IMG/VR virus record: IMGVR_UViG_3300031260_000038
Coordinates: 15,099-79,098 of that record
DNA length: 64,000 nucleotides
Strand: one strand, 5' to 3'
Origin: a virus
Lineage: Duplodnaviria > Caudoviricetes
The position numbers were made by a program, and so were the translations under genes. Below the pieces are notes generated by a model, which saw only the letters and a program-made list of their open reading frames with translations, was not told the DNA's origin and searched no databases. Below are positions 10,185 through 22,501 of this stretch, piece by piece; the stretch's first letter is position 1; every line of letters begins with the position of its first letter.

Positions 10185-10811
10185 ATGATAAAAATAGAAC
10201 GTGCTCAAGTATTTGGTATTGATAATGCTTTATATGGCATGCGGCTACCAAAACAATCTAATGATAAGGGCGATAGTTATTGTGATGATGGTATATTTTT
10301 TATTGGTGATAATGACCTAAAGCTTGCACAAACACTAATTAAAGCAGGGTCAGACCATAGAAAGTTTCTTAGGCAGATTTCTGTAAGTATGGCTATAACA
10401 GCCCCGAGATATTGGTGGTCTGAAATGGACACTTATAAAGTGGCTACAGCCGCCAATAGCGAAAGCACCATGCACAGACTAGCTCAAACACCAATAACAA
10501 GAGATTGTTTTAGTTTTGACAGTATTGAAGACTTGTATTATTTAATGGAAGAATCTTTTGAAGACTATGTGCAAGATTGTGAACGTTTAAGATTAAATTA
10601 TCTTGAAACAAAAGATAAAAGATATTGGAGAGCATTAATACAAATGTTACCTTCATCATGGAATCAAACAAGAATGTGGTCTGGTAATTTTGAAGTTTTA
10701 TATAATATTATTAATGCAAGAGATAATCATAAATTATCAGAATGGCCTGATTTTATAGCGGAAATAAAAGATTTACCATATGCGAAAGAACTATTATTTT
10801 TTAATAAGTAA
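10185..10811 (+). CDS. ThyX-like (flavin-dependent thymidylate synthase-related) phage protein
   Basis: HRKFLRQI, TAPRYWWSEMDTY, NSESTMH motifs; context with dut and nrdJ. Confidence 0.6.
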   Translation: MIKIERAQVFGIDNALYGMRLPKQSNDKGDSYCDDGIFFIGDNDLKLAQTLIKAGSDHRKFLRQISVSMAITAPRYWWSEMDTYKVATAANSESTMHRLAQTPITRDCFSFDSIEDLYYLMEESFEDYVQDCERLRLNYLETKDKRYWRALIQMLPSSWNQTRMWSGNFEVLYNIINARDNHKLSEWPDFIAEIKDLPYAKELLFFNK

Positions 10812-10820
10812 AAATGGCAT

Positions 10821-10862
10821 AAAAAAATTGGGAGAACAGTTTAATTACTGTTCTCCCTTTTG
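10821..10862. terminator. Bidirectional rho-independent terminator
   Basis: 11-bp stem gggagaacagt/actgttctccc with A-tract before and T-tract after, where the two transcription units converge. Confidence 0.85.
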
Positions 10863-10866
10863 TTGT

Positions 10867-11013
10867 TTATATTGTAGGTATTATTTCTTCAAGATAGCCA
10901 CGAATGGTTATAGCCACGGCTACGTCTCCACCTACAGCTTCTGCATAGGCATCAAATGTAGTTCCTTCTGGAAACACAAGTGGCAGTTCTAATGGAATAT
11001 CTACTAATTGGTC
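10867..11013 (-). pseudogene. Orphan 48-codon C-terminal gene fragment
   Basis: DQLVDIPLELPLVFPEGTTFDAYAEAVGGDVAVAITIRGYLEEIIPTI-stop; preceded in frame by TAA, no start codon at its 5' end. Confidence 0.55.
10996..11010 (-). repeat. att-like direct repeat (partner 15434-15448)
   Basis: caattagtagatatt vs caattggcggatatt, 12/15, same frame (QLVDI / QLADI). Confidence 0.45.
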
Positions 11014-11030
11014 TTATAAAATCACCCTTC

Positions 11031-12011
11031 TCACGATATGTGATATTTAAAATGAGCCTCTTTTGCTCTGTGAGTTGAACTTGATATATATACTCTAGTT
11101 GTATCTGCTGACCTATGTCCTAGGGCATCTTGTATATCTGAAAGCTCCATGCCAGCTTCGTGTGATAGCGTTGCAAATGTGTGTCTTAATACGTGCGGTG
11201 TTAGTTTTTTAGAAATATTTGTTTTAATACTTATGTTTTCCAAGATTTTTTGTATAGCCCTGTTAGACAAATTGCCATGTGGTTTTTTAAGAGAAACAAA
11301 AAGATGCTCTGAGTCTACATCACGCTGACTGAGGTATGTTTGCAAATAATACAAACATTTTTGTGACAAAAAGGTTATTCTTTCTTTGTCGCCTTTTCCT
11401 ATAACGGTTAGCGTTCCTTGGTCTAGGTTCAGACTAGACAATTTAGCGCCCGCTATTTCAGACAGTCTAGCACCAGTTGAATACATTACTTCTATTAGCG
11501 CCCTGTCTCTTATGTTTTCACAAGCATTTCTAATTTTTTCTAAATCTATTATATTTAATGCTTTTGGAAGTCTGACAGGCTCTTTAATTCTTGAAAATCC
11601 AACCCATATGTTTTCTTTAACGTAGCCTTTGGTCAGCGCCCAGCCGTAGAATGTTCTAAGCACAGTGACGGTGTTGTTCTTAGAGGAATTTTTAATAGAT
11701 AGCTGTCTAATGTATTCCATTGCGTCATTGGTTGATATTTCAGAAATATTGCTAAAAGAACTAAGAAATTTATTGATTAATATTTTTCTATCTTTTACTG
11801 TTAGTGTTGAATAGCCCGCATCTAACATATGTTGACAATACCCCTGAATGATGTCTTCTTTATTAGCTTCCACTATTTCTGAAAACACTTCTTTAACACT
11901 ATATTTTTGCAATAATCTTTGAGCCACCATTCTTAGCAAGTTGTGGTCTGCCGCCGTGTCTAACATTCTAACTGATTCTACCAATTCGTTTATTAGTTTT
12001 TCTTTGGACAT
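11031..12011 (-). CDS. Tyrosine recombinase 1 (XerC/D-like)
   Basis: STGARLSE, GKGDKER, HVLRH, GHRSADTTRVY: catalytic R-K-H-R-H-Y intact. Confidence 0.92.
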   Translation of the reverse strand: MSKEKLINELVESVRMLDTAADHNLLRMVAQRLLQKYSVKEVFSEIVEANKEDIIQGYCQHMLDAGYSTLTVKDRKILINKFLSSFSNISEISTNDAMEYIRQLSIKNSSKNNTVTVLRTFYGWALTKGYVKENIWVGFSRIKEPVRLPKALNIIDLEKIRNACENIRDRALIEVMYSTGARLSEIAGAKLSSLNLDQGTLTVIGKGDKERITFLSQKCLYYLQTYLSQRDVDSEHLFVSLKKPHGNLSNRAIQKILENISIKTNISKKLTPHVLRHTFATLSHEAGMELSDIQDALGHRSADTTRVYISSSTHRAKEAHFKYHIS

Positions 12012-12035
12012 AATAGCACCATCCTTTCAGATGCT

Positions 12036-12064
12036 ATTATATCACAAAGATTTTGTTTTGTCAA
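12036..12064 (-). promoter_or_regulatory. SigA-type promoter of recombinase 1
   Basis: TTGACA-17-TATAAT with extended -10; overlaps a 9-bp inverted repeat. Confidence 0.85.
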
Positions 12065-12085
12065 GTGCTATTTCGCAATATGTGG

Positions 12086-12205
12086 CTATTGTGTAATAAT
12101 TTCAACTTTTTCGCTTTCGGTTATTCTTCCGATTTCCACGAGGTTATTTAGATAAGCTTCGTCTATTTTTCCCATTTGGAACTGTAATTTCAAAAACCTT
12201 ATCAT
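12086..12205 (-). CDS. XkdX-like small protein (39 aa, not in ORF track)
   Basis: MIRFLKLQFQMGKIDEAYLNNLVEIGRITESEKVEIITQ; TAATG coupling to the upstream gene. Confidence 0.6.
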   Translation of the reverse strand: MIRFLKLQFQMGKIDEAYLNNLVEIGRITESEKVEIITQ

Positions 12206-12474
12206 TAAAATCCACCCCCTAAAACATCCACCATCAGCATTTCCAAGGCTTCAAGGCGTTCTTCTGCCGTCGGTTCTTTTTGCCAGTATTTATCAAAATT
12301 TTCTTCTAATTCTGACAACGTAGCGGTTGTCTTAAAAGCCAGTTCATCGTATTCATAAAATGTCTGACCTTCTTCATTCTTGTATTCACGTTCGTTTTTC
12401 CGTAAATACACATCAGCATACTTTCCGATTGGGAAATAAGATATTTTAGGTTGTTTGGTAGTGTATTCTGCCAT
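12205..12474 (-). CDS. XkdW-like tail-fibre-associated protein
   Basis: ATG after GGAGG; C-terminal EPTAEERLEALE motif; directly upstream of the XkdX-like gene. Confidence 0.55.
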   Translation of the reverse strand: MAEYTTKQPKISYFPIGKYADVYLRKNEREYKNEEGQTFYEYDELAFKTTATLSELEENFDKYWQKEPTAEERLEALEMLMVDVLGGGF

Positions 12475-13618
12475 TGTTTTCCTCCTTTTGGTATTGACTG
12501 ATATAATTTTTACAAATATTAACAGCTTCAACTATTTTAAGTTTTCTTCTAATAAACCACGAGTTTGTGTGTTTATACCAACTATAAGCAGATATAATTT
12601 TCCGTGCGATATTTATATTAATTTTTCTTTTCCAGAATTTAACAAAAACACGTCTTGTTTTTAAAAATATTTTAGTTCTAATCGTTGTAGAGTTCTTTCT
12701 AAAAACAAATCCCATCATGTCTATCGGCTCATTGTTTGAAAGCTTGTTCGTTTTCCAGAAATCCTTAATATCTAACAGCAATTCTTCCTTAAGGAATTTC
12801 TTTAACATTAGAAAGGCTCTTTTTACAAATTTCTTGTTTTTACCAGTCAAGATAAAGTCGTCCATATAGAATAAAACGTGTGTTATCAACCTCTTGCGAA
12901 CAACCCCTCTTTTAGTTCTTCTGACAGTGAATAATTTTTCGCTTGCAAAATGATAGGCATAAGACAAATAATAATTACACAAGTATTGAGATAAATATGA
13001 ACCAATTGAAAGACCGCCGTTAAACATTGATAATAATAATTTGAACAACCATATAAGCGTGTTGTTTTTAATATCTCTTTCCAAAAAATATATTAATTTG
13101 TCTTGTGGTATTGATGGGAAACACTTTACGACATCTCCTTTTATAAAATATTTTACTTCATTTCTATCAATCCACCTGCGTATAAATCTTTTGCCATAAC
13201 ATTGTCCTTTATTGGGTAAAGATGCGCATTGAAATACTCCGATTTTTGCCATTAACATCTCTTTAGCACCCTCTATTGCGATATAATCACATATTTGGTG
13301 AAGTGGCGACTGAACCCCTATAGTTCTTTCTTTTTTGCACATATAATCGTACTTGGTGAAATATTGTATAGGTCTTAATTTCAGCGTCTTGTTTCTGATT
13401 TTGCCTGATAAATAATTAGCAATATTTAACACAATGCAATGTATTCTCGTGCGGTCGTTGTTCACAAAACCTGTTATCTCTAAATAACTATAATTTGAAA
13501 ATTTGCAAAACAATCTTCGCACATCTTTTCTGTTCCATTTTCTTTTTAAATATTTATATATGCAACTAACAATAAAATCCATGTTGCATATATCTATGTT
13601 TTTACAGTATCTTTTCAT
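12446..13618 (-). CDS. DGR reverse transcriptase RT1
   Basis: FIKGDVVKCFPSI, GLSIGSYLSQ, FYMDD; no group II intron maturase domain; adjacent TR/VR pair. Confidence 0.93.
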   Translation of the reverse strand: MKRYCKNIDICNMDFIVSCIYKYLKRKWNRKDVRRLFCKFSNYSYLEITGFVNNDRTRIHCIVLNIANYLSGKIRNKTLKLRPIQYFTKYDYMCKKERTIGVQSPLHQICDYIAIEGAKEMLMAKIGVFQCASLPNKGQCYGKRFIRRWIDRNEVKYFIKGDVVKCFPSIPQDKLIYFLERDIKNNTLIWLFKLLLSMFNGGLSIGSYLSQYLCNYYLSYAYHFASEKLFTVRRTKRGVVRKRLITHVLFYMDDFILTGKNKKFVKRAFLMLKKFLKEELLLDIKDFWKTNKLSNNEPIDMMGFVFRKNSTTIRTKIFLKTRRVFVKFWKRKININIARKIISAYSWYKHTNSWFIRRKLKIVEAVNICKNYISQYQKEENNGRIHYQTT

Positions 13619-13749
13619 TATGACCTTTCTAATAATGTCTCAATGGATTTCGCTAAACTACTAACCACTGCTGTAACGATTAATTTTACTTAGTTAAGTG
13701 AGCCGTGCCCGCTTAAAGCGGGGAGACTTGGCACATTGTTTTTTTATTA

Positions 13750-13860
13750 GATTGCCGGGGCAAGATATTCCAGTTCGAGTTCGTCAACGAGTTGTTGCCA
13801 TTCAAGTAACGTAATCCACACTGAGCGTCATTGTTCAGATTACCGAAAGACTGCCATACC
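13750..13860 (-). repeat. DGR1 template repeat TR1
   Basis: 111 bp; 24 differences from VR1, all at TR adenines (17 A>G, 6 A>T, 1 A>C). Confidence 0.96.
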
Positions 13861-13884
13861 TTGCTGTGCCAAGAATCCTCTATA

Positions 13885-13914
13885 AGGGGTTGTCACCCCT
13901 CAATGCTTCGCATT
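13885..13914 (-). promoter_or_regulatory. Candidate DGR1 target-recognition hairpins
   Basis: AGGGGT-GACA-ACCCCT (GRNA loop) and AATGC-GAA-GCATT just downstream of the target stop. Confidence 0.65.
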
Positions 13915-13915
13915 T

Positions 13916-15655
13916 TCACCCCAAACTACGCCTGCGGCTTCGCCCAGTTGCTGAAAGCCGGGGCAAGACATACCAGCCCGAGCCCGCCAACGAGTCGCTG
14001 CCAACCAAGCAACGCAATCCACACCGAGCGCCAACGCTCAGAAGACCGAAAGACCGCCACACCCTTGTACCAGTAACCGGAGAATTTGTATAGATACCAT
14101 CGCCAAATCCAGTAGAAGAACCCGCTAATGACTCAACAGGCACAATTACAGATGGATTATTTTCGTCGATTGCTATTTTGCTAATATACTGCCAAGCGTT
14201 ATTTGTTTGTGTCAATTGATAACCAACTAAATCATAATTAGAAGTTATTGAAGTTGCGTAATTATGACAATCGTAACAAGCGTAAACTTCAATTTTGTAC
14301 GTTCCGGTATTGTCGTTGTTGATTATCAAGTTTTGAATGACTTCATAACCACCAACCATCACTTCTATGCCGTTGATGATAAAGGGTTCTTTGCCTGATA
14401 AATTGTTATAAGGCGAACCATCTTGACCGAGCACGTCATCACAGCCGCCGCTGTTCCAAGGCATTGTTGATATTTTAGTTGACAAGGTGGTGTCGAAAAC
14501 AGCAGAATCCACATAGACAGCGCTGTTGCCATCGCCTAAATCTTCAATAGATGTTATTTTAACTCTATTTGCCAAGTCGTGAACGCTTGCGTTTGCTCTA
14601 TCTGTCGTTGTAGCGTTGCCAACCGAAACAGTCGAACCAACAAGCAAGTAAGCGCCTTCTGCATTTGACACAACAACACGATTAACCCCGGTTTCCGCAA
14701 CCCTATTGGAATACTGGGCATAGTAAGCCTGACAACCTTTCATCACATCGTCTGATATTGTTGTTGCGTATTTAAGCCACATCATCAACTGCACGTAAAA
14801 ATCATCGTGAGAAGTTTTGCCGCTATACTGAGCGCCTTTGGCGGCAAACGCTGTAATTTGTCCATTGTGGCTCATATTCACATATTCAGGATAAACACCG
14901 CTGATGGACGCAAGATTGTTACTTTCGTGTACGTTTCTTCCTGCGACATACTTAGCGAACAGCAAATAAGGTCTGATTGTTCCGTCGGGCTTTTCTGCCG
15001 GTTGTAGAATTTTGTAACCCTCGTATGGAAAATCAGTATACGAAACTTCCCAATAAGTGTCCGTAAATGTTACTTTAAAATACCCCGCCATCGCCATGAT
15101 GTAGACATCGCCGTTCGTGCCGTCACGCCTGAAATTAGAATCGCCTTTTATTGCTGTAACGTGGTAATCGTCGTTTGCATCTACATGAGCGTTGACTTCA
15201 ATCGACCGAAACAGACCGATGTTTTCGTAGTCGTTTCTGCCTTTGATGGTGTTTGTTGACGGTTCACAGACAAGACCCATGCTATCATCAAGTTTTGTTC
15301 CGAGTGGTGACTGTGACACAGAGAACAGATTGAACCTTACAGTGTAGATTTTCCCTGTGCGTTGTGCATTCCAGAATCCACCTAATCCGATATACTCAGT
15401 ACCATTGAAATAAACATCGTTCACGTTTGACGCAATATCCGCCAATTGTGTATCTAGTTCATCTATTGCATCTTGTGTATTAGTAGCCGTAAGTCCACTT
15501 GTAGTATTATTATATTCTAAATCTATTGCTGACGCTTCTGCATAGCTACCTGTGCCATCACCTTTTAGAACGCCGTTTACGTCTCTCATTGTTTGCAACA
15601 TCTCGCCATATTTAGTAGATGCTATCGGCTGACCATTATACATTAAAACAGCCAT
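13916..15655 (-). CDS. DGR1 target: tail fibre / receptor-binding protein with C-terminal CLec/Mtd-like variable domain
   Basis: VR1 at the C-terminus; short N-terminal stalk motif TATNTQDAIDEL. Confidence 0.85.
   Translation of the reverse strand: MAVLMYNGQPIASTKYGEMLQTMRDVNGVLKGDGTGSYAEASAIDLEYNNTTSGLTATNTQDAIDELDTQLADIASNVNDVYFNGTEYIGLGGFWNAQRTGKIYTVRFNLFSVSQSPLGTKLDDSMGLVCEPSTNTIKGRNDYENIGLFRSIEVNAHVDANDDYHVTAIKGDSNFRRDGTNGDVYIMAMAGYFKVTFTDTYWEVSYTDFPYEGYKILQPAEKPDGTIRPYLLFAKYVAGRNVHESNNLASISGVYPEYVNMSHNGQITAFAAKGAQYSGKTSHDDFYVQLMMWLKYATTISDDVMKGCQAYYAQYSNRVAETGVNRVVVSNAEGAYLLVGSTVSVGNATTTDRANASVHDLANRVKITSIEDLGDGNSAVYVDSAVFDTTLSTKISTMPWNSGGCDDVLGQDGSPYNNLSGKEPFIINGIEVMVGGYEVIQNLIINNDNTGTYKIEVYACYDCHNYATSITSNYDLVGYQLTQTNNAWQYISKIAIDENNPSVIVPVESLAGSSTGFGDGIYTNSPVTGTRVWRSFGLLSVGARCGLRCLVGSDSLAGSGWYVLPRLSATGRSRRRSLG
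13953..14063 (-). repeat. DGR1 variable repeat VR1
   Basis: Encodes VWRSFGLLSVGARCGLRCLVGSDSLAGSGWYVLPRLS vs TR1 VWQSFGNLNNDAQCGLRYLNGNNSLTNSNWNILPRQS. Confidence 0.96.
15434..15448 (-). repeat. att-like direct repeat inside target 1 (codons Q70-I74)
   Basis: 12/15 identity to 10996-11010; at the end of the stalk. Confidence 0.45.
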
Positions 15656-15729: not shown

Positions 15730-16590
15730 ATGATTGAAAATTTTTGTACTTACCTTTATTCTGTAAAAAACAGGTCACATAGAACGATAACTGAATATCG
15801 TTATGACCTATTGCGTTTTGAAAAATTTATTGGAAAAGACCTAAAAGATGTAGATAGCGGCGACATTATTTCTTATCTAAAAAAGATGTCAGACGAAAAG
15901 AAGTCTAGTGCCTGTAGAGCTAGAAAACTAAGCTCTATTAAATCGTTCTACCGCTATCTACAAATGTTTGGTCATGTTACGGTCAGCCCCGCCGTAAACA
16001 TTGGTACGCCCAAAATTGAAAAGAGATTGCCTAAATATTTATCCCTAGTCGAAGCTGTTAGGCTTGTTGATGTAGCCAAGCAAAACAAAGTTGAGTTTTA
16101 CAGACTAAGAGATACCTGTATGATACAAATGTTTCTTAACTGTGGTTTGCGTCTATCTGAACTTGTTGAACTGCAACTGACAAGAATTAGCGGTGATAAA
16201 ATAGAAGTTATTGGAAAAGGCAATAAACAAAGATTTATTTATATGAACAATGCTTGTCAAAAAGCTCTTTCAGAGTGGCTTAATTACCGACAAGAATATT
16301 CCTGTGACTATGTTTTTAGCACGAAAAGAGATAACAAAATATCCAAAACAGCTGTTCAGTCAGTTATAAAGAATTATTTCAGAAAAGCTGGTCTTGACAC
16401 AACTAAATACCATGTTCACAGCCTACGACATACGTCTGCCACACTAATGTATCAGTATGGCAAAACAGACGTGCGTGTGCTACAACAATTTTTAGGACAC
16501 TCTACGATAGAATCAACCATGATATATACTCACGTTAATGACAACCAATTAAGGTCTGCTGTTATTAACAATCCACTGGCTAACCTATAG
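15730..16590 (+). CDS. Tyrosine recombinase 2 (XerC-like), antisense to the surrounding operon
   Basis: NCGLRLSE, GKGNKQR, HSLRH, GHSTIESTMIY: catalytic residues intact. Confidence 0.92.
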   Translation: MIENFCTYLYSVKNRSHRTITEYRYDLLRFEKFIGKDLKDVDSGDIISYLKKMSDEKKSSACRARKLSSIKSFYRYLQMFGHVTVSPAVNIGTPKIEKRLPKYLSLVEAVRLVDVAKQNKVEFYRLRDTCMIQMFLNCGLRLSELVELQLTRISGDKIEVIGKGNKQRFIYMNNACQKALSEWLNYRQEYSCDYVFSTKRDNKISKTAVQSVIKNYFRKAGLDTTKYHVHSLRHTSATLMYQYGKTDVRVLQQFLGHSTIESTMIYTHVNDNQLRSAVINNPLANL

Positions 16591-16594
16591 GCGA

Positions 16595-16610
16595 AATCTT
16601 AATTTGGTTC
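16595..16610 (+). repeat. 16-bp inverted repeat, left copy
   Basis: aatcttaatttggttc, 4 bp after the recombinase-2 stop; exact reverse complement of 19661-19676. Confidence 0.8.
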
Positions 16611-16710
16611 AATCTGAGTAATTAATTCCCGTGATAGACTTGTATTCTTCTTTTGTAATACGCTTCATTTTGACTAAAAATTTATACAACCTTATTTCAG
16701 CATCGCTCAC
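16609..16710 (-). CDS. XkdX-like small protein (33 aa, not in ORF track)
   Basis: MSDAEIRLYKFLVKMKRITKEEYKSITGINYSD; RITKEEYxxITG motif; GTGA coupling. Confidence 0.7.
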   Translation of the reverse strand: MSDAEIRLYKFLVKMKRITKEEYKSITGINYSD

Positions 16711-17015
16711 TTAGCACCCCCTCCTGACAACAAAACTATTTCTGTTAAATCTGCCAACAATTGGTTTAACTGTTCATTCTCAATTTCTTCTTGCGTTTTT
16801 TGCCTCAATACTATCCATGATTTTCCGTCACGAATAATATTGGACAGCAGTTTCATGTCTTGATATGTTTCTATTTTTTCTCCGTCTGATATTTCTACCA
16901 AGGACAAGTTATTTTCAAAAATTGAATCTTCAATAACTTGTCTGGCAATATAATTGTTTCCGTTTAATTCAAGGTTTTCTATAATTGTTCCGTCTGCCAA
17001 TTTTATGTGGTACAT
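16707..17015 (-). CDS. XkdW-like tail-fibre-associated protein
   Basis: C-terminal KTQEEIENEQLNQLLADL motif; upstream of the XkdX-like gene. Confidence 0.55.
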   Translation of the reverse strand: MYHIKLADGTIIENLELNGNNYIARQVIEDSIFENNLSLVEISDGEKIETYQDMKLLSNIIRDGKSWIVLRQKTQEEIENEQLNQLLADLTEIVLLSGGGAK

Positions 17016-18190
17016 TGATTGACCCCCTTTAATTCGTTATATAAATTATTCATATTTGTTCGTTGCTGTCTGCTCATTAGTTTGTAGTGATTGTTGAACC
17101 ACGATGTAAACAAACACTCAAAATCTTTTTTGTCTAAAACAGGAGCAAGTTTTTTCATTTTTCTCCGCATTGCTGTTAGTCTTTTGGGATTTATTTTCTT
17201 TATAATTCGACCTGTTTCTGTTAGCGAATATTGTATTTGCAAAAATCTCCAACAACTTGATAACTTGCAAATTCTTGTCTTTTTAGTGTTTATTGTGATT
17301 CCTATTTTTGTAGATTCCTCGACTATTTCTTTTAGCAGTGATTCTAAATAATTTTTATCTTGGTGAATTACATAACTGTCGTCCATGTACCTGCCGTATA
17401 GCTTTACGCCCTTAACAATTTTTATATAGTTGTCTAAGTCTTTAGGATAAGCTATGCCAGCAACCTGAGCTACTTGGTCGCCTATATTAAGATGCTTGTC
17501 CATTATTTTGCCGCCAACACATAACGCTTTATCTATATTTTGATATTCTAAAGAGTTAAATAATTCTTGCATGCATACGGAATATTGTTCGTCACTCATA
17601 TAGGAAACATCTACCCGAGACTTTTCAATAGCTTTTTCAAGAACCCATAAAGCGTCATTTTTAATTCCTATTTCTTCAAATATTTTTAGAAAATAATCGT
17701 GTCTTATATTGTCAAAGTATTTGCTGAAATCTATTAACAATATATATCCATCGTTGCTACCGTGCTTAGAGTAAAATCGTCTTAAATGTCTTTCAAACCT
17801 ATCCCTTGTAAAGCCAATACCCTTACCTTCTAAACTTGCTCCGTTATCATGTATAAGGTATTTTTTTATTACAGGAATCAACTCTTCTGTGCATAGACAA
17901 CTTTTAACCACCCTGTCTCTTATGTGCTCTCCTGTTATTAATCTTGTTTTCCCTCTTTCTTTTAATATAAATTCTGAACCATCAGACAATTCAAACGTTC
18001 GATTCTTTATAGATTTATAAGTTTCTGATATTTCTGGCAAAAACCTCATTTCATATTTTTGAACAGAGGCTTTCCAATCACTATTCTTCTTGGTCTTTTT
18101 ATAAGCTTTATAAAGATTATTAGAATTAAATGTTTCATGCTCACAGCTACAATTCTCGTAAGAAGTAGCGTCATGTTTAGTATTTACCAT
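17003..18190 (-). CDS. DGR reverse transcriptase RT2
   Basis: IRDRVV, LLIDFSKYFDNIRH, LNIGDQVAQ, YGRYMDD; follows avd and TR. Confidence 0.94.
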   Translation of the reverse strand: MVNTKHDATSYENCSCEHETFNSNNLYKAYKKTKKNSDWKASVQKYEMRFLPEISETYKSIKNRTFELSDGSEFILKERGKTRLITGEHIRDRVVKSCLCTEELIPVIKKYLIHDNGASLEGKGIGFTRDRFERHLRRFYSKHGSNDGYILLIDFSKYFDNIRHDYFLKIFEEIGIKNDALWVLEKAIEKSRVDVSYMSDEQYSVCMQELFNSLEYQNIDKALCVGGKIMDKHLNIGDQVAQVAGIAYPKDLDNYIKIVKGVKLYGRYMDDSYVIHQDKNYLESLLKEIVEESTKIGITINTKKTRICKLSSCWRFLQIQYSLTETGRIIKKINPKRLTAMRRKMKKLAPVLDKKDFECLFTSWFNNHYKLMSRQQRTNMNNLYNELKGVNQCTT

Positions 18191-18251
18191 ACGGAAGGAT
18201 ATTTTCTCCTTTCTTTAATGCAAATCGGTCAAATGCCTTTTTAATTGCAAA

Positions 18252-18342
18252 ATTGAAATCGGGACGCGCGCCAAGAGAGTAAGAAGCGTTGTTGTTGTTG
18301 GCATTACCGTTGTTGTTGACATTGGCAAAGTTCGTCGATGAT
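18252..18342 (-). repeat. DGR2 template repeat TR2
   Basis: 91 bp, AAC-rich; 16 adenine and 4 non-adenine differences from VR2. Confidence 0.94.
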
Positions 18343-18362
18343 ATTAGAAAATACCCCATGGA

Positions 18363-18896
18363 TTAGTTGTTAAAATTTTTAGCAAACTTGTTGTCAGACT
18401 TTCTCCATCCTTTTATCAAAGATATCTCTTTTTCTATTCCATCTGAAAAACGTAAGTACTTATCAATATCAACTGGTAGCGTTTCAATTGCATATTGAAG
18501 CTCTTGTAGTAATCTGTTGCATTGACCTATCGCCCTATCCTGATGTATTCGCCTTTCAATCAATTCTTCTTTATAGTGAGGATAAATGCTGTTGGCTACA
18601 AAAATGTGTTCCTGAACACTTCTAAGACAGTCCATAACTGAATCTCTCTGGTCTATGATAAACCATTCTTCAAACGAGTTTGTCTTTTCCTTCCTATCAT
18701 CGTAATGCTTCTTTTCCGCATCGTTTAATTCATGATATGGTCGTTTCCCAAATGTTTTTGCTAAATATTCTTCTGACTTCTTACTACTGTAGCCAAAATC
18801 TCTCAAAAGCAAGTCTGTTATCTCTTTTCTGACTTTATAAAAATGATGAAACACCTCAAATTGAGATTCTTTTCTTTTTCGTTTTACGACTGACAC
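18363..18896 (-). CDS. avd: DGR accessory variability determinant (Avd-like four-helix bundle)
   Basis: MSVVKRKRKES start, basic and helical, C-terminal LIKGWRKSD; sits between target and TR. Confidence 0.85.
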   Translation of the reverse strand: MSVVKRKRKESQFEVFHHFYKVRKEITDLLLRDFGYSSKKSEEYLAKTFGKRPYHELNDAEKKHYDDRKEKTNSFEEWFIIDQRDSVMDCLRSVQEHIFVANSIYPHYKEELIERRIHQDRAIGQCNRLLQELQYAIETLPVDIDKYLRFSDGIEKEISLIKGWRKSDNKFAKNFNN

Positions 18897-18933
18897 TTAA
18901 TTTCTCCTTTTGTAAAATGTTTTAATTATCTAC

Positions 18934-18953: not shown

Positions 18954-20492
18954 TTAAGAAATACAGAAAGCGGGACGCACGCCATAAGAGAGAGAAGCGC
19001 CGTAGTTGCCGGCAAGACCGTCGTTGGTGACATAGGCAAAGGTCGCCGATGATGAAACATCTCTCAACCAATAGGATTGCCTCGTATTCACGGATTGTGG
19101 GTTTGATGCAAATAGTGGGAATTGCGATTTATCCACATATACATTATTCGCCAAGCTAGTCCCTTGCGTTGCGTTGCCATAATGCTTAGTGCCATATACA
19201 TTAGCTTCAGTCATCAGTTCTACCGTTGAGTCATACCACGATCCACCACTTGTATACCCACTGGTTACCGCATTATGTAAATAGTTTCTATGACTTACCA
19301 CATGACCGCTAAAGGCGTTATTTATGGTGGTTTTTGCACTATTTAACCCAGATACATACATTTTGCTGCCAACATAAGCACCTGTTGTAATGTTAGTGTC
19401 ATTCATCACATGATTATACAGTGCTGTGTCTGGCACTATTACAGCGTGATTAGCGGTAAGCGCTGTATCGCCTGTATTGTGGTAATAATTGAAACAAGCT
19501 ATTCTGTAATTAATTCCACCGATAGTCCAATAGTCGCCAACATATAGGTCGTCAAATGTGCCGCTTGAAATGGCATTGTATTGCTCTGTTGTGACAGCCG
19601 AACCTAAATATTTACCCCTGAATATAGAGTTGTGAAACCCTGCGCCACTTGAAATTGGTAGAACCAAATTAAGATTAGTGTCTAATTTATCAATTGAACT
19701 GGTAACAGTTTCACCATCTGTTACATAATTATTTTCTGTATAAAGCCTGTCACCAACATTGTCATTTGTGTCTTTTAATTCCATATCTAACTTGTCTATG
19801 CTTGCAGTTAAAGCTTCACCATCTGTTACATAATTTTCTTCAGTATAAAGCTGAGAACCTTTATCTTCACCTATTTCTTGTAAAGCATCTTCAACAGTGT
19901 TGCCGCTATAATATCCGCCGCCATCTGTTATACTTATTGTGTTAGCGTTGTTTATTAAAAGGTCTCCTTCTACATCTGTTATAATATATACTTGGTCTGA
20001 TTCAATTTTACCCTGTGCATCAAGAGCATCATATTCAGCCTGAGTTAAATATATGGCTGTAATTTTATACCAACTGCTATCTGGTGGCCCTGCTTCACCG
20101 CCACGCATTACATCAAATTTAATTTCACCGCTACTTATTCTTTCGTCTGCATCAGTAATTGTTATTTTTATTGTTACTTTACCTATAAAAGCAAACACAG
20201 CAGGATTTATTTGTAAAACTATTTCTCCATCAACTATATTTACATCATTACCAAAACTTTGGGTATATACAGGTTCACATTGATTCTCAATATAATAATG
20301 AACATCAATTGTTTCTGTTGTAAGTGTTAATTTAGCGCCATTTTTTTGTACTTCAATATAAAAAATATTGCCATATAAATCACCACGACTAAAAAAAGGA
20401 ACAACATATTTATATGTTTGATTATTATATGGAGCTATAATATGTTTACCTGTATATAAATCAAGCCAAACTTTGTATTCTTTTTTAGCCAT
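18954..20492 (-). CDS. DGR2 target: baseplate-anchored tail fibre (BppU-like N-terminus, stalk repeats, CLec-type C-terminus)
   Basis: FSRGD N-terminal motif, LTQAEYDAL motif, 35-aa repeat, C-terminal YWLRD...GVRPAF. Confidence 0.87.
   Translation of the reverse strand: MAKKEYKVWLDLYTGKHIIAPYNNQTYKYVVPFFSRGDLYGNIFYIEVQKNGAKLTLTTETIDVHYYIENQCEPVYTQSFGNDVNIVDGEIVLQINPAVFAFIGKVTIKITITDADERISSGEIKFDVMRGGEAGPPDSSWYKITAIYLTQAEYDALDAQGKIESDQVYIITDVEGDLLINNANTISITDGGGYYSGNTVEDALQEIGEDKGSQLYTEENYVTDGEALTASIDKLDMELKDTNDNVGDRLYTENNYVTDGETVTSSIDKLDTNLNLVLPISSGAGFHNSIFRGKYLGSAVTTEQYNAISSGTFDDLYVGDYWTIGGINYRIACFNYYHNTGDTALTANHAVIVPDTALYNHVMNDTNITTGAYVGSKMYVSGLNSAKTTINNAFSGHVVSHRNYLHNAVTSGYTSGGSWYDSTVELMTEANVYGTKHYGNATQGTSLANNVYVDKSQFPLFASNPQSVNTRQSYWLRDVSSSATFAYVTNDGLAGNYGASLSYGVRPAFCIS
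18963..19053 (-). repeat. DGR2 variable repeat VR2
   Basis: Colinear with TR2 at a constant offset of 711 bp. Confidence 0.94.
19661..19676 (+). repeat. 16-bp inverted repeat, right copy (codons N273-L278 of target 2)
   Basis: gaaccaaattaagatt; at the stalk / C-terminal domain boundary. Confidence 0.8.
19710..19835 (-). repeat. Stalk repeat in target 2
   Basis: 21-bp exact direct repeat (19710-19730, 19815-19835), period 105 bp; LYTExNYVTDGExxTxSIDKLD twice. Confidence 0.85.
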
Positions 20493-20882: not shown

Positions 20883-21275
20883 TTACTTTATTTCCTTTAC
20901 TGCTTTTTCTATCTGTGCAACTATAAGTGCGTTTAATGCACCTGTAGCTGTTTCAATAACATTCATGCCACTTTCAGACATAATTTCTTTTGTCCTTTCA
21001 AAAGATTTATCAAAAGCAATTTTAGCATCTTCTTTTGTAAAAGTATTGTCAGATTTTAGTGCCGCAACAAATGTTTGTTGTGTTTCGGCTACAGCGGTCA
21101 TAACCGCCTGTTCAAGCTCTGATTTTGCTTCTTTAAAAGCATCTTGTATTGTTTTGTTCTTTATTTGTTCTATTTTAGCATCTGCTAAACTGGTCAGGGT
21201 TTTTACACCCCAAGCCAGTAGCGGAACTATAACAGATGTTATTATTATCATAATAATTTCATTTATATCTAACAT
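20883..21275 (-). CDS. Holin (LL-H-like)
   Basis: Single N-terminal transmembrane helix with charged tail; adjacent to the endolysin. Confidence 0.7.
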   Translation of the reverse strand: MLDINEIIMIIITSVIVPLLAWGVKTLTSLADAKIEQIKNKTIQDAFKEAKSELEQAVMTAVAETQQTFVAALKSDNTFTKEDAKIAFDKSFERTKEIMSESGMNVIETATGALNALIVAQIEKAVKEIK

Positions 21276-21304: not shown

Positions 21305-22501
21305 TTATTTATCAAATTTAATAAGAGTAGTTATTGTTTTAGGGCCTGTAATACCATCAACTTTGAGACCATTCCGATATTGGAACGACATTACAACTTT
21401 TTCTGTAAGCGGCCCATAAGAACCATCAACACCATATGGCGAAAGATTATACCCCGCTCTAATCAATACTGTCTGAATCCATTTAACACCATTGCCACGA
21501 CTGCCACGTTTAAAAACAGAACTGGTAGAAGGTCTTGTATATGGATTTTTCCACGGCTTAACAGGGTTTTTAGCCATAGCCAAAGATGCAGGACCAAATA
21601 TACCATCAATTACCAGTTTATAATCCTTTTGGAAAGATTTTACCGCTGATTCTGTGGCAGGACCAAATGAACCATCGTCTACAAGGGCGTAGCCGAGCTG
21701 TGATAGCTTTTGCTGTACCCACTTAACATCATTACCCTTGTCTCCACGCCTAAGCGCCTTAGTAGGCTCTACGGGCGATTTAGATGGTGTTACAGGCTGT
21801 TGCGAGCCAGAAGACGTTTTAAATTTTATAATTTGACCGACATTAATTTCTTCTGGATTTTTTATCCCATTAAACTCTGCAAGCTCCTTATATTTAGAAC
21901 CATCACCGAGATATTTTTCAGCTATAGCCCAAAGACTATCTCCCGCTTTAACAACATAGCTGTCAGTATCAATAATTTCTGTTTCTTTTGTATAATCAAT
22001 ATAAGGACATTCACCCCAATTTTTCCAACCACGCTCTTTAAGCTTTGTTTTTACAACGCCATAATCAACGCCACGTGCTTCAATAACTTCACCGTTACCA
22101 ATATAAACGCCTACATGACCCTTTGAAAAAACAAGAATGCCTTCTATATCTGGCATAGTATCTATATTGCCATTAACTTTTGTACGCCCATACATACCGT
22201 CAGCACTTACATCTGTATCTCTATCATATTTAGGGTTTTTATCATCACCTTGCCACCAAAGAAAGCCTTTAATAAGACCAATACAATCAGCACCACGCTT
22301 ACCTACAGCATCACCATCTCCATCAAGTCTACCACGATATGTTTTTGCTTTATATGCCGCTGTATATTGTTTGGGAAATCTTCCTGCCGCCGACTCAATA
22401 CTTGCCGCTGTTACAATCTGTCCGTAATGTGCGTAAGTATAATTCCATTTTTCTGCTAAAGCCTTTTTTGCAAATGCTACTAATTCTTTGTTTGTTTTCA
22501 T
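21305..22501 (-). CDS. Endolysin: NlpC/P60-like catalytic domain, LysM, two PG-binding domains
   Basis: ADCIGLIK and GHVGVYIG; YVVKAGDSLWAIA (LysM); DGxFGPxT twice. Confidence 0.88.
   Translation of the reverse strand: MKTNKELVAFAKKALAEKWNYTYAHYGQIVTAASIESAAGRFPKQYTAAYKAKTYRGRLDGDGDAVGKRGADCIGLIKGFLWWQGDDKNPKYDRDTDVSADGMYGRTKVNGNIDTMPDIEGILVFSKGHVGVYIGNGEVIEARGVDYGVVKTKLKERGWKNWGECPYIDYTKETEIIDTDSYVVKAGDSLWAIAEKYLGDGSKYKELAEFNGIKNPEEINVGQIIKFKTSSGSQQPVTPSKSPVEPTKALRRGDKGNDVKWVQQKLSQLGYALVDDGSFGPATESAVKSFQKDYKLVIDGIFGPASLAMAKNPVKPWKNPYTRPSTSSVFKRGSRGNGVKWIQTVLIRAGYNLSPYGVDGSYGPLTEKVVMSFQYRNGLKVDGITGPKTITTLIKFDK

Follow-up and report, generated by a model that had tools for sequence, protein, structure and literature searches.

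How does a complete diversity-generating retroelement (DGR) come to sit at the tip of a phage tail fibre with a tyrosine recombinase gene at its far end, and does that enzyme move it? The question is raised by a 64,000-nt stretch of viral DNA, hereafter the window, which corresponds to positions 15,099-79,098 of the record IMGVR_UViG_3300031260_000038 (coordinates below are those of the window). Here the distal end of the late operon runs on the minus strand from target 2 and its retroelement (DGR2) through target 1 and DGR1 to recombinase 1 and an orphan reading frame. The first-pass annotation of this DNA took DGR1 together with recombinase 1 for an integrative cassette that had displaced the end of the fibre gene. 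Comparison with related contigs leads us to favour another explanation, to which we give a probability of about 0.62: DGR1 would be a swappable tip on a fixed fibre anchor, exchanged by ordinary recombination, and the orphan frame would be the remnant of a separate gene, here called Y. We do not think that excision and integration by recombinase 1 at two 15-nt repeats is the exchange route.

Layout of the locus

The argument rests on the following features, listed from the left flank of the fibre gene to the end of the operon.

15730-16590, plus strand: recombinase 2, Xer-like, 286 aa; conserved left flank, divergent from target 1
13916-15655, minus strand: target 1, made up of the fibre anchor and the variable domain
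15440-15655, minus strand: fibre anchor, codons 1-72 of target 1, with the C-terminal end ...IDELDTQLA
15448 to 15434, minus strand: left 15-mer (QLADI), CAATTGGCGGATATT, codons 70-74 of target 1; the swap joint 15437/15438 lies within it
13916-15437, minus strand: variable domain of target 1, from codon 73, probably exchangeable (phrog_17147)
13957-14063, minus strand: variable repeat VR1, inside the variable domain
13754-13860, minus strand: template repeat TR1, a 107-nt repeat of VR1
12446-13618, minus strand: RT1, the DGR reverse transcriptase (RVT_1, E 6e-9)
12205-12474, minus strand: W, a small open reading frame (ORF) with no assigned family
12086-12205, minus strand: X, a 39-aa ORF and the final gene of the putative swappable block; its TAG stop, 12086-12088, is the right joint
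12074-12094, minus strand: 21-mer ACACAATAGCCACATATTGCG, the best partner of the stalk end, straddling the right joint; a lead only
12012-12085, minus strand: start of the right flank, with the recombinase-1 promoter region (TTGACA-17-TGnTATAAT, 12064 to 12036)
11031-12011, minus strand: recombinase 1, an Xer-like tyrosine recombinase of 326 aa (stop codon 11031-11033)
10867-11013, minus strand: orphan frame, the last 48 codons of gene Y; Y DNA homology reaches at least 11018
11010 to 10996, minus strand: right 15-mer (QLVDI), CAATTAGTAGATATT, native Y coding sequence
10830-10857, both strands: bidirectional hairpin terminator with an 11-bp stem, kept in contigs L025, L128 and L129
10185-10811, convergent: ThyX-like gene, beyond the terminator

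No DNA match to the window between 10000 and 21000 was found among the INPHARED phages.

Sister alleles place the exchange at the fibre tip

An allelic series was assembled from five sister contigs, and the joints between shared and unshared DNA were mapped by pairwise BLAST and manual comparison. On contig L129, the end of another fibre-like gene is followed by a 16-mer (see below), recombinase 2, the anchor joined to a GDSL/SGNH esterase domain, recombinase 1, a remnant of Y, the terminator and the ThyX-like gene. The fibre protein encoded there (P0020, 501 aa) shares 72 of its 72 anchor residues with target 1 of contig L001, and then continues into the esterase domain. At the DNA level these two contigs are 97.9% identical through codon 72, and the next 1.3 kb are unique to L129. 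Their left joint lies 11 nt into the left 15-mer, since L129 and L001 agree through ...CAATTGAATGA (GATACACAATTGAATGA) and diverge from there. On the right, the common flank starts directly past the stop codon of X in the window and in L001, and 8 nt past the esterase stop in L129; BLAST aligned L129 with the window at 92% identity over 12080-10422, and manual comparison moves the start of the flank to 12085. Judged from these joints, the exchangeable unit is 12086-15437 (3.35 kb), comprising the variable domain, TR1, RT1, W and X. The earlier proposal that the C-terminus of a tail gene had been swapped is borne out on the left, where the swap lies at the stalk end with its joint inside the left 15-mer, and fails on the right, where the joint is at the X stop, 1.07 kb away, and not past the recombinase.

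A further tip is found on contig L130, whose protein P0029 follows the anchor to codon 67 and then carries a 73-residue Phage_tail_C tip. Counted from their own residue 1, the anchors of P0020 and P0029 are 89% and 73% identical to that of the window. When residues 1-80 of target 1 were run through a full phmmer scan, no more than two representatives had the anchor beginning at their own residue 1, and anchor searches in IMG/VR and 185,579 genomes returned a generic fibre repeat, with no more sister alleles and no host prophage; residues 42-75 of target 1 are a very common and widespread fibre repeat. Relatives of the variable domain (L002, L003, L112-L125) match target 1 from residue 50-91 onward and stand behind other N-termini.

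Two contigs without the DGR, L025 and L128, have an intact Y and no recombinase 1. L025 reads from the divergent N-terminus of recombinase 2 through a spacer of ~70 nt into Y and the same terminator. In L128, which was obtained through a cluster look-up of Y, the anchor is fused to the C-terminus of W and is followed by X, Y, the terminator and the convergent ThyX-like gene. The fusion keeps the anchor to codon ~68, in frame with the last ~13-17 codons of an L001-type W, and homology to target 1 stops at 15452. More distant DGR loci (L002) have a full-length W that ends in the same C-terminus, which makes a deletion derivative the best reading of L128. The first-pass annotation had predicted an empty site left by precise excision; no such site was found, as L025 and L128 have other joints. 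We also considered whether L128 and L129 are chimeric assemblies, which is unlikely, as no long words are shared at their joints and two samples have yielded L129.

Between the window and L001, identity changes from segment to segment: 100% in the DGR2 block, ~97% in RT1, ~77-88% in the target body, 35-50% in X and 60-75% in the recombinases. The profile is a patchwork with no single sharp cassette edge and no step at the joint.

The spacer before Y (AAGGTAT..TCAAG, then AAAGAAGGATAATTT-ATG; L025 61-129, L128 316-352) resembles the target-1 spacer AAAAGGTATGATTTGTCAAG (L001 3310-3361). The block from target 1 to X may once have been flanked by a ~20-nt direct repeat, of which L025 would be the one-copy form, though the resemblance is weak (an 8-mer plus a 5-mer).

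The start-less frame belongs to another gene

The frame beyond recombinase 1 is start-less, as first described: it has 48 codons (DQLVDIPLELPLVFPEG...IPTI, then stop), a TAA upstream and no ATG, GTG or TTG at its head. It had been read as the displaced C-terminus of the fibre, and is instead the 3' end of an independent 255-aa gene. The orphan is 94% identical in amino acids to residues 207-255 of the protein P0001 (255 aa), over 98% of the query and with the same end, and when longer proteins were searched with its 48 residues only the P0001 cluster was found. The N-terminus of Y (MYETIVKTLL...) and the rest of its first 206 residues share nothing with target 1; homologues with an unrelated N-terminus are the outcome that the annotation had itself named as speaking against its reading. 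Y falls into phrog_8198 (E 2e-15), a family with no assigned function. It matches nothing in Pfam or in a profile search of PDB sequences, and the Atlas gives only viral hypothetical clusters. The 79-kb record contains one Y match only, no further copies of Y were found in IMG/VR and the JGI metagenomes with peptide patterns and an exact 28-mer, and the orphan peptide gave chance matches only against the INPHARED phages.

What of the two 15-mers that were taken for attachment (att) sites? Both are present, on the same strand and in the same frame, with 12 of 15 positions identical, the right one beginning 20 nt past the recombinase-1 stop. A match of this quality is at chance level and does not mark them as att repeats: allowing up to three mismatches, the window holds three copies of the 15-mer, against 2.33 +/- 1.44 in shuffles, 42% of which reach three. 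When the 164 nt after recombinase 1 were compared with target 1, 11 windows reached at least 12/15 (shuffle mean 4.4, sd 3.6; 5.5% of the shuffles reach 11). In L129 the pair is reduced to 8/15 by hand count. The homology to Y runs across the right 15-mer: nucleotide identity of the window to L128 and L025 is 85% over a stretch that starts at 11018, at least 8 nt upstream of the 15-mer, and extends through the terminator. The intact Y of these two contigs carries CAGTTGGTAGATATT at the corresponding codons, and no recombinase lies close by. A protein joining anchor and orphan (..DIPLELPLVFPEG), as excision between the 15-mers would produce, was not found among 5.8 billion proteins.

A separate exact match between the two genes is CTATGCAGAAGC (YAEA), in frame and identical at 12 of 12 positions, at 10937-10948 in the orphan and 15534-15545 in target 1 (codons 37-41). 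Y of L025 and L128 has it too. As a repeat it beats the 15-mer, and it is probably due to chance.

Comparison with L129 points to an orphan that is decaying. The L129 copy has lost its stop codon to a 4-nt deletion and has two further indels, a deletion and an insertion of 1 nt each. Aligned with the window's copy it is 85% identical with 5 gap columns, where recombinase 1 of the same two sequences is 94.7% identical without gaps; the L129 copy is the more decayed of the two. As this case shows, a start-less frame beside a recombinase can be what is left of a gene instead of a silent cassette. Recombinase 1 might itself have deleted the 5' part of Y by way of a QLVDI pseudo-site, an idea for which only the chance-level 15-mer speaks.

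DGR1 is a canonical retroelement

DGR1 itself is canonical, an ordinary member of its class except that it is avd-less. Over the 107 nt of TR1 and VR1 there are 22 mismatches, and all 22 fall on template adenines, of which TR1 has 27. RT1 starts 135 nt from TR1 and is 97% identical in L001 and 57% in L002; the phrog_17147 match covers residues 74-575 of target 1. No ORF fits between target 1, TR1 and RT1, which leaves no avd there. DGRs without avd have been catalogued, and a missing avd does not bar membership. Neither of the small genes W and X gave a Pfam or PHROG match, and a label of X as XkdX-like was not confirmed, Pfam being empty. The C-terminus of W (..RLEALEMLMVDVLGGGF) resembles the end of a coiled coil, and W homologues adjoin the target or the RT in L001, L002, L120, L121 and L125.

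The arrangement resembles the one in Bordetella phage BPP-1 (mtd-atd-TR-brt) in its adenine-specific differences between TR and VR at the 3' end of a tail-fibre gene, and in having TR and RT directly downstream of the target. It differs from BPP-1 in that no avd/atd stands between target and RT, in that the target domain is of phrog_17147, and in that DGR1 is one allele of an apparently swappable tip.

Recombinase 1 lies in the flank

Recombinase 1 is a clear tyrosine recombinase (Phage_integrase, E 1.7e-37) with ~50 extra N-terminal residues. Its best PDB and NCBIfam matches are XerA, XerC and XerD, all under the equivalog cut-offs, and no arm-type domain was detected in it or in the likewise Xer-like recombinase 2. 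Recombinase 1 is 97.5% identical in amino acids in L129 and 63% in L001, and recombinase 2 is 78% identical in both, its N-terminus being present in L025 as well. The promoter of recombinase 1 matches the sigma-70 consensus at 12 of 12 positions, has an extended -10 TG, and is kept in L001 and L129; given this conservation, the gene is probably expressed independently of the late operon. Promoter and gene together form a unit that begins right past the X stop, ends ~3-13 nt past its own stop, and stands in place of the X-Y spacer and ~205 codons of Y.

Is this unit part of what is exchanged? The stretch of recombinase 1 and orphan is common to the window and to the esterase allele L129 at 92% identity, which makes it flank and not cargo. 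L128 has no recombinase 1 and yet carries module remnants (the end of W, and X) directly upstream of Y. Among the five records with relatives of RT1 and target 1, none has a PF00589 match, and three of these five are 94-100% complete according to CheckV. The earlier view that the recombinase belongs to a mobile DGR unit is contradicted on both counts, as the gene is outside the exchanged block and none of the five related-DGR records encodes a tyrosine recombinase; as far as these records tell, it is not intrinsic to this DGR type.

There is no support for an att-flanked integrative element that recombinase 1 moves, as this reading fails on every feature tested. The locus does share with integrase-borne integrative elements and integron cassettes a tyrosine recombinase that abuts a block present in some relatives and absent in others. 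It departs from them in lacking att-type repeats beyond chance, in a recombinase that stands outside the exchanged block, and in empty alleles (L025 and L128) with different joints and no recombinase 1.

A third Xer-like tyrosine recombinase lies at the start of the 79-kb record (L169 (G000:C1), 3-704), where it is cut by the record's edge and followed by plus-strand genes. Its identity to recombinase 1 is 26%, and that between recombinases 1 and 2 is 24%. In two loci that carry 38%-identical relatives of recombinase 1, a dyad-symmetric repeat of 20-33 nt is found at most ~100 nt upstream of the recombinase gene (L035 7885-7991, L036 7891-7968), which could be a recombination or operator site.

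How the tip may be exchanged

We picture the distal end of the late operon as a recombination hot spot on a fixed fibre anchor. The 72-codon anchor presumably docks on the tail, leaving the tip exchangeable. In the window, the tip module is a complete DGR (TR1, RT1, W and X together with the lectin-like variable domain that contains VR1), in which the RT would copy TR1 into VR1 with errors at adenines and so diversify the tip; in sister phages, the same place is taken by the 1.3-kb GDSL/SGNH esterase domain, the 73-residue tip or deletion stubs. The joints are the last stalk heptad (IDELDTQL/A) on the left and the stop codon of the module's final gene on the right. Modules may be exchanged between related phages either by homologous recombination in the conserved flanks or illegitimately at the repetitive stalk motif, with selection keeping the in-frame joints. 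In the right flank, the promoter and recombinase 1 would have taken the place of the X-Y spacer and of the ~205 codons with which Y began, leaving the 48-codon orphan. The direction of these events we infer from which forms are truncated.

Of the known systems, the locus works most like classical fibre-module mosaicism. Such mosaicism is familiar from the fibres of P2, Mu and P1, and from head swaps of lactococcal receptor-binding proteins (RBPs) on conserved N-terminal anchors. As in these cases of fibre or RBP C-terminal exchange, an identical N-terminal anchor carries unrelated C-terminal domains in close relatives (esterase, short tip, stub, DGR domain), the joints lie at domain and gene boundaries, and identity is patchy along the locus. 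The difference is that the module here brings along the machinery for its own diversification (TR, RT and two small genes), with an esterase tip as the alternative.

In most descriptions a DGR is a fixed appendage of its target gene. The natural allelic series presented here shows a complete DGR as one interchangeable tip on a fixed anchor, with an esterase tip as an alternative, and offers a concrete case of how a phage lineage can acquire or give up hypermutable host recognition through a single recombination event. What is new, if modest, is that a complete DGR occupies a swappable tip as one of its alleles, an esterase tip being another, and that the joints are located to within a few bases.

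Several observations weigh against exchange by ordinary recombination alone. The sister contigs are short metagenomic assemblies (0.9-4.9 kb), so that a single phage backbone cannot be demonstrated from them, nor the order of events rooted. Two recombinases bracket the fibre gene in the window, L001 and L129, whatever its cargo, and relatives of recombinase 1 with 38-51% identity are co-oriented beside tail-fibre genes in 7 of the 7 loci examined. The stalk end ACACAATTGGCGGATATTGCG (15451 to 15431) forms a direct repeat of 17/21 with ACACAATAGCCACATATTGCG (12094-12074) on the right joint, as would be expected of a cassette served by a recombinase. A perfect inverted repeat of 16 bp connects 16595-16610, 4 nt past the recombinase-2 stop, with 19661-19676 at the stalk end of target 2 (NLNLV), a position homologous to the target-1 joint (IDKLDTNLNLV vs IDELDTQLADI); its arm is kept beside recombinase 2 in L001, L127 and L129, and the similarity between L129 and the window stops at the arm's inner edge.

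These points would fit recombinases 1 and 2 being enzymes of the fibre locus, with the last stalk heptad of each fibre (ID-LDT-L...) as the crossover site. Recombinase 2 would flip the DGR2 block at the perfect 16-bp sites, and recombinase 1 would excise or exchange the tip between the stalk end and a site at the X stop and promoter, that is, at the 17/21 repeat, which straddles both of the independently defined joints. A precedent is the Rin shufflon of Bifidobacterium prophages, with several silent start-less Rv cassettes, exact 11-bp inverted rix sites between them and observed inversion variants (Mavrich et al. 2018, PMC6109161). The order of elements is the same in both systems (a constant RBP N-terminus, a variable C-terminal part and an Xer-like tyrosine recombinase at the far end), the joint is at the constant/variable boundary of the RBP, and both enzymes of the window are Xer-like without a detected arm-type domain, as in Rin (PMC6109161). 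The embedding of recombinase-1 relatives in fibre modules agrees with such a role, and the third recombinase, at the record start, could then be the lysogeny enzyme.

Unlike Rin, unit 1 has a single tip, no silent cassette in the record and no exact repeat, its variants are seen only between genomes, and its cargo includes a whole DGR. The 17/21 repeat in particular is not secure. Although ACACAATAGCCACATATTGCG is the top-scoring 21-mer over 10800-15419 on both strands, its score is reached by 5 of 60 shuffles (8%), the pair falls to 13/21 in L001 and 10/21 in L129 (hand count), and the central 6 nt differ. Tyrosine recombinases require an identical overlap region. The stalk end shares no exact 12-mer with the rest of the 79-kb record, where no silent alternative tip was found, repeat searches in the fibre loci of recombinase-1 relatives gave no convincing invertons or inverted repeats, and the identity profile between the window and L001 has no step at the joint. 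We consider a recombinase-served exchange of this kind possible and rather unlikely; if true, complete DGRs would be the cargo of such an exchange, which would combine module swapping with hypermutation.

It is improbable, in our view, that recombinase 1 is a lysogeny integrase or multimer-resolution enzyme, a moron of promoter plus gene that lies by DGR1 by coincidence, with its attP or resolution site perhaps in the retained Y remnant and terminator region. Such a moron would explain the gene's own perfect sigma-70 promoter, its place at the end of the late operon by a convergent terminator, the gene boundaries at which the unit starts and ends, and its absence from the alleles with intact Y, and Bacillaceae relatives are annotated as integrases. 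It accords poorly with an Xer-like enzyme that has only ~50 unassigned N-terminal residues and no recognised arm-binding domain, with the two other tyrosine recombinases in the record, and with relatives that are found inside tail-fibre modules and not beside repressor genes.

The integrative cassette of the first-pass annotation, whose excision at the 15-mers would fuse anchor codons 1-69 to the orphan as the original fibre end, is very improbable: it can point to the two co-oriented 15-mers, to the coincidence of the left one with real swap joints and to an after-stop and stalk-end geometry (in own-gene sense) that matches the 16-bp pair of recombinase 2 and target 2, and it is contradicted by the origin of the orphan, by the position of the right joint and by the chance level of the repeat.

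DGR2 and the upstream part of the operon

Swapping of the DGR1 tip on its anchor, the reading we prefer, would take place next to a second retroelement in the late operon.

21305-22501, minus strand: endolysin, late operon
20883-21275, minus strand: holin, late operon
18954-20492, minus strand: target 2, followed by avd2 and TR2
17003-18190, minus strand: RT2, reverse transcriptase of DGR2
16707-17015, minus strand: small gene of the DGR2 block

An inversion at the 16-bp repeats would end target 2 after four further codons (VQSE, then stop; hand translation), which looks like a putative on/off switch rather than a tip swap. Abutting the target-2 arm, an exact 14-nt match connects 19673-19686 with positions ~440-453 of G000:C1, within the sequence that codes for the third recombinase; chance would give ~0.03 matches of this kind. 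The DGR2 block (16620-18900, with avd2, TR2, RT2 and the small gene) is ~100% identical to L001 over ~2.2 kb, and in the same comparison the adjoining recombinase 2 reaches no more than 65-83% along most of the gene, and recombinase 1 about 50-77%. This pattern suggests either a recent transfer of the DGR2 block between diverged backbones or a fast turnover of the recombinases.

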